A stretch of DNA of 13,650 bases from assembly GCA_049423385.1 (NCBI GenBank), contig JBMSQQ010000091.1, forward strand, positions 1 to 13,650, given 5' to 3'. Made by a program: the position numbers. Positions 3,001-6,000 of the stretch are shown piece after piece. Each line of letters opens with the position of its first letter. Position 1 is the stretch's first letter. Origin of the DNA: Silvanigrellaceae bacterium (GTDB taxonomy: Bacteria > Bdellovibrionota_B > Oligoflexia > Silvanigrellales > Silvanigrellaceae).

Positions 3001-6000
3001 CTGAAACCGATTTACACTCATGGAGCAGACTCGAACGGAGGCCGCTCCAATGACATCAGGACTTCGCAGGACACTTTGGTGTTTTGCTGCTCTCACCTCG
3101 ACGGTTGGAGCGACAAACAAGGCCAAGGCCGCCGCATGGTGGTACGAACAAGCAGAACGCTTGCAGAATGTAAGTGCTTCGCTGCTCGATGGTCCACCGA
3201 TTTCGGAACCCGTGCCCTACAGAAACTTTATTGCTGGCAGAATGCTCACCAGCGTGCTGCCCAAAGCCAGCGGTCGTGTCGGCGACAAGGATGAAAAAGT
3301 ACCCTCGGCGCCGGTTCATGCGGTGCCAACCTTCGTTGCTGGCATGCCACTCTATGCCTCCGGAAAATACTCACTCGTCGGCACAGGATGGGCAGGACTT
3401 CTCTATTTGCCAACATCGGTTGCGAAGCTGATGGGCATCAATGCCTCTCTCTCACAGTTTGCATTCGGTTTCAGTGGCGAAAACATGTATCGCCTCCCGA
3501 GCATGATTCTCACAACCAGCCTGGGCTTGCAGTATGCAAACGCAACCATCGATGGCGCCATTACTGCCGCTGAAGCCAAAGACAAATTCAATGCGGGTAC
3601 AACTCTCATCCACGTCAGCCAGGGTGTGCGTGCCCGCACCATGCCCCTGTGGGCGAACGCGATGCTGCTGATGCGCCGGGTCACATCCAAATTCGCCATC
3701 ACTCTTGAGCAAACAGAATTCATCAGAACAGACACGATGGCAGACGCCCAGGTGCCGTTTGCTACACAGCTCACCGTGGGGGCAACGTTCAATAAAAACA
3801 TTCATGTGGCATTGTCTGAGTATATTGTTCCCGACCGTTTGATCATGCCCCGGCTGAGTGTTGTTTACCAATACACTTTCGGGAACAAGACAACAGCTTC
3901 GTCCGCATCCGCAAAATCTGCTGCCGGAGAAGGTTCAAGCAGTGGCAGCGATGGCTCAACGTCGCAAAAACCAGCTTCTTCAGCTAAAAAAATCAAGCGT
4001 AAGAAATCATCTCCTGCTTCAACGTCTGCGCCAGAATCTCCTGCGTTTGAGACTCCCGATGCCTCCAAGGGAACGGCCGCACCTTCAACTGAATCCGGTG
4101 ACAAAACGAAAGCAATTGATCCTTCTGCTCAACCAAACACAACTCCAAGCGAGGGGACTGAGAAATGAGAAGAAAACTTTCATTCCTGGCCATCGTCTGC
4201 GGATTCATTGCATTGTCTTTGTCTTCCTGCAGCGCATATGATTTGGGGTCAGCCGGAAACTATTACTATGACATCGGCGCCGACAACATCACCAATCCCA
4301 CCTGGGAGGGTGGAATCAGTGTCATCGTGGAAAAGAAATGCGCAACATGCCACACTGCGGCCAACCCTTGGTACAAACCCAAAAACGTCGACACCAACAC
4401 CAATGGTCCGAAACTTCAAAACATTGCCAGCAAGGAGTTTTGGAAAGAAGACACGATCATGTCACTGATCAAGAAATGTCTTGAGGCCACATGTGGAGTT
4501 GAAAATGTCCCCATGCCACCCAAATACGCCTCTCCGCTCAATCAAAATGAAAAAGATGCGCTGATCAATTTTACAAACAAGCTGATCCCAGCGGCGTCGG
4601 CTGGATTTTCTGCAAAATTTGCAGGATGCGAGGCATGTCATGCCACCAAGGGAGCAGGACAGGGCACGTTTCCAAAGCTCGCTGGCACTGCGCTCACGCT
4701 CGACGAGTTCAAAGCCGTCATTCGCGCTGGCAGAAAGGGCACAAAAGGTAATATGCCGGCATACACAACGACCGAATATTCCGATGCAGATTTGGCTTCA
4801 GATCATGCCGAACTCAAAAAGCTGCCCTGACACGAACAATTGCTGGATACGCAGCTCGACTGACGTATCTTGAGCTCGAAAAAACTCACCCCGCCGGCAG
4901 TATCTCCGTGCGCACTTCGCCAAAACCAACGCGCACGCCGTCTTTTTCACACCACCCGTTCATGATGACCGTGTCACCATCCTGCAGGAAGGTGCGGGTT
5001 GTTCCGTCGGGCAGTGAAATTGGTTTGGTGCCTTTCCAGCAAAGTTCGAGCATCGAACCATAGCTGTCGGGCGTCGGACCACTGATCGTGCCGGAGCCAT
5101 ACACGTCGCCAACATCTATGTTCGTGCCGTTGGATGCCATGTGTGCCAACTGTTGAGCCATGTTCCAATACATGTGCTTGAAATTGGTTCTGGAAATCCT
5201 GACAGGCTCGCTCATCTTTGCAGACTTCAACCAGACTTCCAGGTTGATGTCATAGGCCTGCGGCCCCTTGCTGCTGAGATAAGGCAACACAGGAACTGTT
5301 TGCTCCGGGCCCGCAACCCGAAAAGGTTGCAATGCATCCAACGTCACAACCCAGGGAGAAAGACTGGTGGCGAAAGTTTTTGCAAGGAAAGGTCCAAGTG
5401 GCACATATTCCCATCGCTGAATATCGCGCGCAGACCAATCGTTGAGCAGAGCCAATCCAAAAATATAATCGTCGGTGGCTTCTACCGGAATCGTCTCACC
5501 CAGCTGTGTCGAACGACCTGTGATGAAGGCCATCTCCAATTCAAAATCCAATTGACGCGTCGGTGCAAAGATCGGCGCGGGATCCGCATCGGCCTTCAAT
5601 TGTCCCATGGGTCGCTTGAATGGAGTGCCCGATGGAATAATCGAACTGCTGCGCCCATTGTATCCAATGGGTATATGCAGCCAATTGGGGAGCAATGGAT
5701 TTTGCGGATCACGAAACATGGCGCCCACATTCGACGCGTGCTCGCGGCTCGAATAAAAATCAACGTAATTTGAAACCTTGGTCGGCAGCAGCATTTTCGC
5801 ATCCGAAACCTTGACCAATGCGCGTGCATGAATGTCGGCTTTTTTCAGGAGCGAATCGTTTCCTTCAGTGAAGAGTTCTGCAACACGTGCGCGCAGAGAA
5901 CGCCAAACATCCGCTCCTGCAATCAACAAACCATTCAAGGAATTGCTGTGCAGCTGATCGCGGCTCAGACCGCGCACACTGGAAAGGAGACCAGCGTCAA

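Follow-up and report, generated by a model that had tools for sequence, protein, structure and literature searches.

Among the known outer-membrane barrels that are coupled to cytochromes, those of the Mtr/Pcc systems and of Cyc2 consist of 16 to 26 strands and enclose a haem protein; the associated cytochromes either contain 8-12 haems or form a fusion with the barrel. A different kind of partnership is found in Slam/T11SS, RcsF-OmpA, and LptD-LptE, where the N-terminal region of the lipoprotein is the recognised element; the tether of RcsF threads through OmpA, and Slam/T11SS serves surface lipoproteins. PcoB with PcoA represents an outer-membrane copper protein paired with a periplasmic oxidase. 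For OmcF of Geobacter, an outer-membrane lipoprotein monohaem cytochrome, we know of no dedicated barrel partner, and to our knowledge neither OpcA nor the omptins have a cytochrome partner.

The locus studied here lies in a window of 13,650 nucleotides (the whole stretch of DNA that was analysed) from the genome of a freshwater member of the Oligoflexia (Silvanigrellaceae). It comprises a gene for a small putative outer-membrane beta-barrel of an unnamed family, here called X, and a gene for a lipoprotein cytochrome c. As in MtrCAB/Pcc and Cyc2, a barrel, predicted for the outer membrane in the case of X, is genetically coupled to c-type cytochromes of which one is a lipoprotein. In comparison with these systems, however, X is predicted to have about 10 staves, none of its 116 family members has a haem site (CxxCH), and its partners carry 1-3 haems. 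With Slam/T11SS, RcsF-OmpA, and LptD-LptE the pair shares a barrel that stands beside or works with a lipoprotein, and the tether behind the Cys of the window cytochrome is conserved; X differs from Slam in that it has neither a DUF560 match nor an N-terminal TPR region, its barrel is smaller, and its sequence is unrelated. The partner shares with OmcF (Geobacter) its small size, its class I type among c cytochromes, and its lipoprotein anchor; the match is weak, with an E of about 1, and covers one domain. Bufferin (MNIO/BufB-BufC) clusters house one clade of X–cytochrome pairs, whereas Pfam analysis of the window revealed no bufferin genes near the window pair. Neither family X nor the pair was found described anywhere in our literature searches.

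The barrel gene X and its family

Gene X (3050..4168, + strand) extends from ATG 3050 to TGA 4166-4168 and encodes a precursor of 372 aa. A GGAGG is located 8 nt 5' of this ATG, and an alternative longer frame opens at ATG 3020. The spacer between X and aspS, the latter named by Pfam (2977..3049, +), harbors a GC-rich inverted repeat at about 2981-3001 besides the GGAGG. A promoter and terminator scan of positions 2700-5100 gave counts no higher than in shuffled sequences, and Rfam and tRNA scans of the window resulted in no match. The precursor begins with a Sec-type signal peptide of 27 aa (3050..3130, +), for which the translation suggests cleavage after ...KAKA and before AAWWYEQ, and the mature N-terminus aligns across all homologues. 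It is followed by an N-terminal helix (3131..3190, +), detected in an alignment of 44 sequences and covering residues 2-18 in the structural model, in which R10 is invariant and W4, Q7, L11, V14, S15, A16, L19, and D20 are conserved in at least 90%. The same helix motif was also identified in other families of the class Oligoflexia. Based on DSSP strands, fold matches, strand charge, and conservation, the barrel proper was assigned to mature residues 33-250 (3227..3880, +); it closes with YQYTF, a beta-signal-like strand, and includes a segment at residues 43-61 (3257-3313, +) that is, together with the helix, the most conserved part of X in the 44-sequence alignment. The low-complexity C-terminal tail of 95 aa (3881..4165, +) is rich in S, A, K, and P, with lengths of 0 to 123 aa among homologues, many of which terminate exactly at the aromatic C-terminal strand, e.g., ...SYQYAF. 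RNA-library contigs from two libraries matched parts of the X and cytochrome genes at 95% identity or more, a weak sign that both are expressed; none of these contigs spans both genes.

The survey's finding had described X as a rare family without Pfam or NCBIfam assignment (77 matches, none with CxxCH), and this holds for the larger set obtained here. Pfam revealed nothing at E<=0.01 and NCBIfam no match; at E<=10, apart from one low-complexity match, the only relevant Pfam match was PF03797 (E 0.038, 14.2 bits against a cut-off of 26), confined to the window copy and missing at the same threshold in the other three paralogues. A profile search against 1.84 billion representatives led to 116 matches at E<=1e-3. 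The long forms among these with a nameable extra part (P0058 and P0064) are maturase fusions, X standing behind the cytoplasmic enzyme, and two further long matches align over short stretches only (9 places) and look spurious. Ten distant representatives are all titled "hypothetical protein" or unnamed, and distant members showed weak OMP_b-brl matches. Using a subset of 10 X sequences, we found 26 related loci, all from MAG records and labeled at the finer level mostly as Silvanigrellaceae, Silvanigrellales, Oligoflexia, Oligoflexales, or Bdellovibrio, with two labeled as Betaproteobacteria and Polynucleobacter. Searching PDB sequences with the 44-sequence profile gave TOM40 (E 0.38) as the sole match and no autotransporter, OpcA, or omptin, and the ESM Atlas returned mostly unnamed clusters, which serve as leads only. 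X as a new, small sequence family is thereby supported.

Besides the window copy, the genome carries the C32 paralogue (53% identity) with a dihaem partner and the C30 paralogue (34% identity) without a partner, both as previously noted. Instead of three copies there are four, since C40:13098-13883(-) also belongs to the family (28% identity, E 3e-14); it has a monohaem lipoprotein partner and forms an in-frame fusion with a bufferin maturase (BufB/BufC-like) that precedes it.

The AlphaFold2 model of X (pLDDT 88.5, pTM 0.83) displays a membrane-type beta-barrel of about 217 residues, preceded by a single 17-residue helix. In VIA, membrane barrels matched the model with Z 16.5, 15.5, 15.3, and 15.0, the best being the 10-stranded barrels designed TMB10, OpcA, and pOmpT (Z 15.3-16.5), and the top fold matches of VIA and Foldseek comprised OpcA, pOmpT, a Legionella porin, and autotransporter domains. 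DSSP assigned 11 strands, of which one bears charges on both faces; in 8 of the 11, one face is at most 8% charged, strand residues are 10% charged overall, and the inner face of the strands is polar. Judged by DSSP strands, turn lengths, and charge pattern, the modeled barrel most likely has 10 staves rather than 12. A membrane-type barrel fold with an N-terminal helix is thus supported by the model, and we infer that X is a Sec-exported protein of the outer membrane. OpcA and the omptins (OmpT, Pla) are its best natural fold matches, with Z 15.5 (rmsd 2.9, 182 residues) and 15.3, respectively, and Foldseek E values of about 1e-5, and come near the predicted model of X in size and stave count. 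Identity in the structural alignments is 7-12%, however, no Pfam or profile match links them, and X differs in its N-terminal helix and in outer loops that are short except for segments 43-61 and 191-210.

The comparison with autotransporters, to which X had been likened before, was borne out in part. Like the beta-domains of Hbp (Z 14.1), EstA (12.3), and NalP (12.1), X has an alpha-helix before the barrel, and these domains align over both elements. In contrast to them, it has no passenger, since in each of the 44 sequences of the alignment the mature protein starts 2-3 residues ahead of the helix, its predicted topology suits 10 staves instead of 12, the PF03797 match stays below the cut-off, and X is paired with a separate lipoprotein cytochrome. 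Thus, the barrel with its N-terminal helix stood, the autotransporter became one of several near-tied matches with 10-stranded barrels scoring higher, and membership in PF03797 is not supported. Soluble 10-strand barrels (nitrobindin-type and related) also scored against the model, at Z 11-13.3, as the survey had cautioned.

The lipoprotein cytochrome and its pairing with X

The partner gene (4165..4830, +) starts with ATG 4165-4167, which overlaps the TGA of X as ATGA, in agreement with the gene order and dihaem lipoprotein assignment reported before. It encodes 221 aa with matches to PF13442 (58.5 bits, cut-off 27) and PF00034 (35.3 bits, cut-off 21.3), and its model contains two class I-type domains (pLDDT 83). 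Haem site 1 (CATCH, residue 59; 4339..4353, +) belongs to a family-specific N-terminal domain of His/Met type, in which C38, C41, H42, M96, and P97 are invariant among 32 sequences, the Met being that of PMPP (4513-4515, +). Haem site 2 (CEACH, residue 155; 4627..4641, +) lies in a variable C-terminal domain that is missing in a monohaem clade and duplicated in L018 and L019. By its CxxCH sites, distal Met, and Pfam scores above cut-off, the partner is a class I c-type cytochrome. A Foldseek search with its model resulted in nothing at E<=0.001 and only in generic class I cytochrome domains; in the ESM Atlas, the N-domain led to unnamed clusters and some PSCyt1 clusters (leads only).

The N-terminus of the window cytochrome shows a lipoprotein signal peptide of 21 aa (4165..4227, +) with the lipobox L-S-S followed by Cys at 4228-4230 (LSSC). 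All 33 partners within the host's family and all 12 outside it combine a hydrophobic leader with a Cys that is preceded by a small residue at -1, features by which the partner is assigned to the bacterial lipoproteins; not every one of them matches the strict lipobox [LVI][ASTVI][GAS]C, as the survey had also seen. Comparison among partners defined a tether motif directly at the lipidated Cys, C-S-A-Y-D-L-G in the window (4228..4248, +). This motif had been called invariant, which did not hold, because the full form C-x-x-[YF]-D-[LFY]-G is present in only 23 of 33 in-family partners; its core is D-[LFY]-G (26/33). One partner clade has C-S-x-A-E-T-L instead, and all 12 partners outside the family carry the motif. 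Mature residues 1-5 have a pLDDT below 50 in the monomer model.

Of the 49 X genes in the family, 33 are followed immediately, on the same strand, by a gene for a cytochrome homologue, three lack flanking sequence, and the other 13 are unpaired, 11 of them in one clade. On the tree, the unpaired genes amount to a small number of events, namely this clade of 11 (support 100/100) together with L029, L027, and L087. Outside the family, each of the 12 full-length X genes in families f2, f18, and f19 has an adjacent cytochrome, downstream in 11 cases and upstream in one (L077), so that adjacency outlasts a change of gene order. The conservation of the pair reported earlier thus extends to a wider range of the class. 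These counts are not independent, since a single bacterial class supplied every locus and a single genus many of them. Where starts are clear, the gap between both genes ranges from -4 to +72 nt, a spacing that speaks, like the ATGA overlap of the window, for translational coupling. X is present in 20 of 33 family genomes and in 7 of 8 genera, with 0 of 13 genomes in g8, exactly as stated before.

In regard to the cytochrome, a profile of its N-domain detected 29 genomes at E<=4e-13, all 29 of which have X; among 98 X-less genomes, none had such a match and three had weak ones (about 1e-8). The cytochrome is found almost only beside X; against the module stand two family cytochromes without X (G014:C31 and G108:C262). 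Distances of X and cytochrome are correlated (Mantel r 0.78, 41 pairs, r reached in 0 of 1000 permutations), which is expected of any linked genes, and the three pairs of G000 correspond one to one with the three of G013. Pairing, co-occurrence, and co-divergence all weigh against neighbourhood by chance and support an ancient and tight pairing of X with a lipoprotein cytochrome c, also in other families of the class. The 11-member clade has no cytochrome, yet keeps the motifs of the helix and of segment 43-61, and therefore X has a partner-independent function of its own. Its flanks showed no obvious lipoprotein neighbour. For L087, an MsrB-like ORF was considered as such a neighbour and rejected, as it has a hydrophobic leader and no Cys.

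Genomic context and the bufferin link

The genes flanking the pair vary by clade and include aspS/FAA hydrolase, a radical-SAM HemW-like gene, a Cys/Met PLP enzyme with arginase, YceI-like genes, and bufferin genes, so that only the pair itself is constant. Further neighbours in individual clades are cytochrome b561 and additional haem lipoprotein genes, and a YceI-like gene adjoins X in eight f19 loci. No other multihaem genes were found conserved near X loci. One clade of pairs lies inside a bufferin cluster, comprising a BufB-type maturase (E 7.5e-75), a lipoprotein BufA-like gene, and ECF sigma/anti-sigma genes, and in L047 of this clade a HupE/UreJ_2 gene is located downstream.

Bufferins are reported to act under copper stress. 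PMC12452194 reports Buf1|Cytochrom_C fusions as well as sigma and anti-sigma genes in Buf1 clusters; its main text contains neither "outer membrane" nor "barrel" (0 occurrences each) and describes no barrel fused behind BufB-BufC. Taken together, the copper, YceI, and HemW contexts point indirectly to a redox or metal-stress role, the hints differing between clades.

A probable barrel–cytochrome module and its alternatives

Based on these results, we read X and its cytochrome as one two-protein module, jointly made and jointly inherited, and it is probable that this barrel–cytochrome module is real and functionally coupled. For its mode of action, we propose that X, embedded in the membrane, would hold the lipoprotein cytochrome at the outer membrane, with contact made between the tether or N-domain of the cytochrome and the conserved helix or segment 43-61 of X. 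In this arrangement, the haem of the N-domain would be placed at the X barrel, electrons would pass in one direction or the other between the variable C-terminal haem domain(s) and partners in the periplasm, and the module would function in the redox or metal-stress chemistry of the envelope. Candidate docking elements are the helix and segment 43-61 on the side of X and, on that of the cytochrome, the tether, which is conserved and modeled with low confidence in the monomer. Anchoring of the cytochrome in the outer membrane is presumed here, lipoprotein sorting not being readable from sequence in the host's phylum. As stated, with binding, direction of electron flow, and substrate all conjectural, this docking and electron-relay mechanism is possible and put forward tentatively.

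X might instead act as a small gate or channel through which a solute passes, e.g., a metal ion (Cu); the cytochrome would oxidise or reduce this solute in the periplasm, both proteins serving one pathway without a stable complex. The polar inner face of the strands fits this, as do the bufferin operon of one clade with HupE/UreJ_2 downstream in L047 and the unpaired clade, whose retained helix and segment 43-61 suggest that X is active by itself; PcoB is among the fold matches as well, but at Z 8.2 only. However, a barrel of 10 staves with a helix possibly plugging it leaves scant room for a pore, X has no Met/His-rich metal motifs, the copper link is limited to one clade, and the conserved post-Cys tether and near-exclusive co-occurrence of the cytochrome with X would go unexplained, and we regard a mere channel as rather unlikely. 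The tether would be accounted for if X were an outer-membrane device that places its cognate lipoprotein on the cell surface, with the post-Cys motif as export or threading signal and the helix as a plug displaced by the tether. A barrel gene beside the gene of its lipoprotein substrate is the layout of such systems, the motif immediately follows the lipid-modified Cys and shows disorder in the monomer model, and the helix is conserved on all faces, as would be expected of a buried plug. Yet X matches neither DUF560 nor any other Pfam family, the unpaired clade has no obvious lipoprotein neighbour, and a folded haem domain is too big for a lumen of 10 staves, which could take an extended tether at most, making surface display improbable. 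Size also weighs against a minimal conduit that would carry electrons across the outer membrane for exchange with the cell exterior, as a miniature, split version of Cyc2 or Mtr/Pcc. Adjacent genes for a barrel and a lipoprotein c-type cytochrome would suit it, the mouth of the barrel could be the site of the invariant N-terminal haem domain, and OmcF is among the cytochrome fold matches (E about 1 only). But 10 staves compared with 16 to 26 are too few to take up a haem domain, none of the 116 X-family members has a haem site, one to three haems per partner are too few for spanning the membrane, and further multihaem genes are not conserved nearby; a conduit therefore seems highly improbable.

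Two other explanations concern the origin and nature of the barrel. A degenerate autotransporter translocator, homologous to type Va beta-domains with its passenger lost and the cytochrome a mere operon neighbour, would agree with the PF03797 match of the window copy, with the alignment of Hbp, EstA, AaaA, and NalP to model residues 1-250 including the helix (Z 11.3-14.1), and, as a lead only, with a look-alike cluster in the ESM Atlas (score 0.94, 143 shared features) that has PF03797 in 63% of its members. This PF03797 match is nevertheless limited to one of four paralogues and lies below the cut-off, the 44-sequence profile recovers no autotransporter from PDB sequences, and 10-stranded barrels score above on a topology that suits them. 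A passenger domain occurs in no member, PF03797 was found in 1 of 31 related genomes (weak matches) and not in the genome studied here (G000) at E<=1e-5, and the pairing, co-occurrence, and co-divergence data speak against a chance neighbourhood, so that this origin appears very unlikely, if slightly less so than the conduit. Least probable of all is a soluble periplasmic 10-strand ligand-binding barrel of nitrobindin/YceI type, supplying the cytochrome with a ligand or cofactor. It draws on the scores of the soluble barrels and on the YceI-like genes adjoining X in f19; in contrast, membrane barrels occupy the higher VIA ranks (Z 14.1-16.5) and make up the listed Foldseek matches, most strands have one near charge-free face, the aromatic beta-signal-like last strand is the true C-terminus in several members, and distant members show OMP_b-brl matches, albeit weak.

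Returning to the docked barrel–cytochrome module, a more specific version can be formulated, which is speculative and, like surface display, improbable. Here, X and its partner would form a new, minimal type of redox device of the outer membrane in which a 10-stave barrel captures the lipid-anchored N-terminal tether of the cytochrome, or threads it through the lumen, and thereby puts a haem at or on the outer membrane; in one lineage, the barrel would be the C-terminal part of a polyprotein with the cytoplasmic bufferin maturase, freed by an internal signal peptide, which would link the device to defence against copper stress. In its mechanism it would differ from Mtr/Pcc, Cyc2, Slam, and autotransporters.

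If both proteins were merely co-expressed, X would be a new but ordinary narrow-range family of hypothetical outer-membrane proteins. A physical complex, if true, would be the smallest known barrel–cytochrome unit of an outer membrane and would show how a short motif behind the lipid-modified Cys can link a lipoprotein to one particular barrel. The maturase–barrel fusion, if real as a protein, would be unusual in giving a cytoplasmic enzyme and an outer-membrane protein from one reading frame. A physical complex of the pair would moreover give access to the redox and metal-stress biology of the envelope in the Oligoflexia (Bdellovibrionota), which are known almost only from metagenomes.

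Gene pair in the window and its paralogues

The genome assembly comprises 3.47 Mb in 183 contigs, and on contig C91, the window, the barrel-protein gene X and its partner cytochrome gene are located between an aspartyl-tRNA synthetase gene (aspS, 1177-2976, plus strand) and a fumarylacetoacetase gene (4886-6172, minus strand). Further annotation with Pfam revealed a PmbA/TldD-type peptidase gene (3-1106, minus strand), an oligopeptide-type ABC system (7094-11078) and, beyond the latter, a trypsin-like protease followed by NfeD and an SPFH protein. An ORF of 322 residues between the genes for fumarylacetoacetase and the peptide-binding protein (6186-7154, minus strand) belonged to no Pfam or NCBIfam family. 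X extends from an ATG at 3050 to a TGA at 4166-4168 (plus strand), with GGAGG 8 nt before the ATG. Its product displays a signal peptide of 27 residues, a mature N-terminus AAWWYEQAERLQNVSASLLD, a body closing on ...VVYQYTF, and a tail of 95 residues rich in S, A, K, and P. This tail (3881-4165) is Lys-rich and of low complexity and includes KKIKRKK; homologues have tails of 0 to 123 residues. The cytochrome gene (4165-4830, plus strand) starts with an ATG at 4165 within an ATGA and encodes 221 residues; the product carries an LSS-C lipobox as well as two CxxCH motifs and matches PF13442 and PF00034 in Pfam. Using contigs of metatranscriptome libraries with an identity of at least 95% to the window, hits from two libraries were detected on X (3045-3195, 3467-3725, 3729-3879, and 3830-3980) and on the cytochrome gene (4480-4662), a weak hint that both are transcribed. 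None of these contigs crosses the junction of the two genes; DNA runs span the whole stretch.

The survey had listed three copies of X in this genome; in fact, four were found, the extra one being C40:13098-13883. Taking the window copy (aspS upstream, dihaem lipoprotein cytochrome downstream) as 100%, the copy C32:30753-31682 revealed 53% identity and lies between a HemW-like radical-SAM gene upstream and a dihaem lipoprotein cytochrome, which is followed by a haem lipoprotein of 649 residues. The copy C30:27862-28752 (34%) is convergent with relA/spoT and adjoins a TolC-RND efflux operon; that it has no cytochrome, as reported before, was confirmed. Downstream of the C40 copy (28%, E 3e-14) lies a monohaem lipoprotein cytochrome of 122 residues whose similarity to the cytochrome of the window is confined to the latter's N-terminal domain (E 4e-8). 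PmbA/TldD-type peptidase genes are found near both the C91 pair and the C32 pair (L055:9003-10430, minus strand, L055 being the C32 locus), and these loci may represent old paralogous segments.

The clade of the C40 copy lies in a bufferin-like cluster whose MNIO maturase is of the BufB type (E 7.5e-75, short of the equivalog cut-off) and which further contains genes for a lipoprotein bearing bufferin-like Cys motifs, an ECF sigma factor, and a multi-pass anti-sigma factor; in locus L047, HupE/UreJ_2 is found downstream. In five of five genomes of genus g1, this fourth copy is the last portion of a single open frame, which encodes, in this order, the maturase, a BufC-like region, a signal-peptide-like segment ending in A-x-A, and X. 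These frames are located at C40:13056-15557 (minus strand; L054:4057-6552, minus strand), L047:1375-3816, L050:1426-3867, L051:1210-3864, and L046:2989-4632; four are complete (813-884 residues), and that of L046 (547 residues) ends at the contig end. The junction is kept at the protein level, the sole indel comprising three codons. In L051, the 60 codons preceding the mature N-terminus of X contain no ATG, GTG, or TTG, and those of L054 contain only a TTG at -58. Judging from its sequence, the frame appears to be a true fusion that joins a cytoplasmic enzyme to an outer-membrane barrel; in genome G006 (L052), as in genome G007 (L044), X forms a gene of its own. Transcribed divergently from the L054 frame are genes for a 127-residue lipoprotein with bufferin-like Cys motifs (L054:6666-7046, plus strand; NCBIfam BufA2 with E 1e-4, below cut-off), an ECF sigma factor (L054:7101-7757, plus strand), and a multi-pass, anti-sigma-like membrane protein (L054:7757-8437, plus strand). 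According to published abstracts and PMC12452194, bufferins chelate excess copper, Buf1 clusters include sigma and anti-sigma genes, and fusions of Buf1 with Cytochrom_C exist; neither "outer membrane" nor "barrel" occurs in the main text of PMC12452194.

Family status, fold and conservation of X

X is covered by no curated model: no Pfam family was detected at E<=0.01 and no NCBIfam model matched. The sole relevant Pfam match at E<=10 was PF03797, obtained with the window copy only (E 0.038, 14.2 bits, cut-off 26) and with none of the other three paralogues. A word-based search against 5.8 billion proteins resulted in 30 relatives, all unnamed or "hypothetical" and none with a Pfam domain. 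Searching 1.84 billion representatives with a profile of the X alignment (44 sequences) revealed 116 matches at E<=1e-3, 82 of these at E<=1e-10, and CxxCH was present in none of the 116. Pfam analysis of 43 distant or unusually long matches assigned no family to 35 and only sub-threshold OMP_b-brl to four. The profile found no real match among PDB sequences (TOM40 at E 0.38), and no description of the family or of the gene pair was found in the literature searched.

The AlphaFold2 model, based on the same alignment and mature X minus the tail, displayed 11 DSSP strands preceded by a helix (residues 2-18), with pLDDT 88.5 and pTM 0.83. In an all-against-all structural search ranked by Z, the best matches were a designed 10-strand membrane barrel (TMB10, Z 16.5), OpcA (15.5), pOmpT (15.3), Legionella Dot/Icm porin I (15.0), and the Hbp translocator (14.1, aligned over 1-250 with the helix included), followed by soluble nitrobindin-type barrels (11-13.3), EstA (12.3), NalP (12.1), FapF (9.5), and PcoB (8.2). 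Foldseek revealed membrane barrels only (Pla/OmpT, Legionella porin, FadL, NalP; E about 1e-5), every TM-score being below 0.5. Most strands have one nearly charge-free face; strand 195-201 bears charge on both. We read the predicted barrel as having 10 staves, provided that 191-210 is counted as a loop. On this reading, the periplasmic turns comprise 2-4 residues, the longer loops are 43-61, 94-104, 143-150, and 191-210, and the C-terminus falls in the periplasm, a modelled layout that corresponds to the canonical outer-membrane pattern and matches the 10-stranded top hits. Several homologues stop exactly at the aromatic last strand (e.g., ...SYQYAF), which is beta-signal-like. Based on topology pattern, 10-stranded top matches, and aromatic C-terminal strand, we accept X as a predicted outer-membrane barrel with an N-terminal helix. 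This part of the survey's "autotransporter-like" barrel stands; the likeness to autotransporters is only one of several (Hbp 14.1 versus TMB10 16.5).

Conservation is highest outside the strands, namely in the N-terminal helix, where R10 is invariant and W4, Q7, L11, V14, S15, A16, L19, and D20 are conserved at 90% or more, and in segment 43-61 (L43, P44, V50, G51, K53, E55, P58, and P61). The helix motif ...TWEEQAERLQxVSAS.LD recurs in X proteins of other families within the class.

The cytochrome partner and its linkage to X

In an alignment of 32 partner cytochromes, the N-terminal domain (about 110 residues) was invariant; it bears the motifs NPTW and PMPP...PL, and C1, C38, C41, H42, P51, M96, P97, and E108 are the same in all 32. 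The C-terminal part varies: 21 partners carry a second haem domain, and two (L018:510-1412, minus strand; L019:2395-3297, plus strand) carry two extra domains and hence three haem sites, the outcome of a tandem duplication of the C-terminal haem domain. Two others are full-length with the second CxxCH lost, seven are short and monohaem, and one ends at a contig end. The motif after the lipidation Cys, previously called invariant, proved less strict, as its full form C-x-x-[YF]-D-[LFY]-G is present in 23 of 33 partners; three further ones (L041, L049, L052) show D-[LFY]-G with small variation, a monohaem clade of six has C-S-x-A-E-T-L, and one has C-G-A-E-T-R-G. Outside the family, all 12 partners harbor D-[LY]-G within seven residues of the Cys. 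The monomer model (pLDDT 83) consists of two class I-type domains after five initial residues below 50, and its structural matches are generic.

Within the family, X was identified in 20/33 genomes and 7/8 genera, and in 0/13 genomes of genus g8, the same figures as in the survey; the pair is absent from cultured relatives. All 49 X matches of the family were fetched and searched with both proteins. As the survey had proposed, a cytochrome gene commonly lies directly downstream on the same strand (33/49); three matches reach a contig end (L017, L048, L053) and 13 are without a cytochrome, among them L025 with only about 200 nt of flank. When 57 X sequences were placed on a maximum-likelihood tree, 11 of the unpaired ones fell into one clade (support 100/100) confined to g1, which points to a single loss of the cytochrome. 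Unpaired L029 has a paired gene as its sister, and L027 and L087 form long branches. At L029 (X at 1471-2283), the cytochrome is lost and the next ORF (2534-3793) is of the arginase family, extended at its N-terminus by about 128 residues. Downstream of the divergent X of L087 (genome G085) lies an MsrB (SelR) gene (2756-3319, plus strand) whose product has a hydrophobic N-terminal leader without a lipobox Cys.

Among 131 genomes of the phylum, X was found in 33 genomes and 13/55 genera, including four other families of the class (f2, f17, f18, f19). All 12 full-length strong X genes of these other families adjoin a lipoprotein cytochrome, 11 with the cytochrome downstream and one, L077, with the reversed order cytochrome-X-YceI. 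Of the 131 genomes, 29 were matched by a profile of the cytochrome N-domain alone at E<=4e-13, and each of these contains X; three genomes without X gave weak matches only (2e-8 to 8e-8). In four genomes with X and no cytochrome, the X copies are unpaired, fragmentary, or weak. Three strong cytochrome matches lie away from a known X, namely L117 at a contig end and two true orphans: L118 (G014:C31; 1767-2582, minus strand), followed by a 540-residue dihaem ORF, and L119 (G108:C262; 1587-2492, minus strand), with a divergent trihaem ORF nearby. Over 41 pairs, the distances among X sequences are correlated with those among the partner N-domains (Mantel r 0.78; maximum of 1000 permutations 0.21), and the three pairs of our genome correspond one to one with the three pairs of genome G013. 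These comparisons show that both genes duplicate and persist as one unit, which does not prove binding, since linked genes share their history.

The genes flanking the pair differ clade by clade. The neighbours are aspS and an FAA hydrolase at 13 g1 loci, one of them the window, a radical-SAM gene of HemW-like type at C32 and L028, and a Cys/Met PLP enzyme with an arginase-family gene at L022 and L023; cytochrome b561 is found near the unpaired X of L027. At eight f19 loci, a YceI-like gene (about 230-257 residues) directly adjoins X (L080:2150-2920, L082:4015-4785, L083:3949-4689, L085:2183-2869, L086:2130-2891, L088:1996-2820, L089:3434-4195, L077:2341-2997), upstream in seven and downstream in the reversed-order locus. 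The YceI-like domain (PF04264) was detected, weakly to clearly, in 3/4 scanned copies (L080, L082, L077; best E 1.6e-10). A haem lipoprotein of 388-649 residues with one or two CxxCH lies beside the pair at four loci from three genera (L055:3908-5854, minus strand, on C32; L045:612-1973; L037:495-1943; L036:2797-3960), revealing faint PSCyt2/PSD4/PSCyt3 signals and no Pfam family above threshold.

Possible roles of the pair

The evidence is computational, and the genomes are related metagenome bins. While the fold class of X and the type of cytochrome are already known, what is new here is the sequence family, the fact that it is confined to one class, and the way in which it is partnered, seemingly obligately, by a lipoprotein cytochrome.

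Our tentative reading, plausible though far from assured, is that X is an outer-membrane barrel to which its cognate lipoprotein cytochrome is docked. The barrel would keep the cytochrome at that membrane with the haem of the family-specific N-domain adjoining it, and the variable C-terminal haem domain or domains would relay to periplasmic partners. Docking could involve the conserved, intrinsically disordered tether after the Cys on the cytochrome side, and the helix, conserved on all faces, or segment 43-61 on that of X. The main point against pure docking is that the unpaired clade retains the motifs of both helix and segment 43-61, so that X must also act on its own; a role as a channel or gate therefore stays alive, though we regard it as rather unlikely. 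Surface export of the cytochrome by X and a miniature trans-membrane conduit formed by both proteins appear less likely. The same holds for a relic of a passenger-less autotransporter, for which the match to Hbp includes the helix and ranks below other membrane barrels, and for a soluble barrel, the nitrobindin-type matches reaching Z 13.3 and the top hits being membrane proteins. Taken together, the neighbouring genes are an indirect hint at redox and metal-stress chemistry in the periplasm, not at respiration proper.
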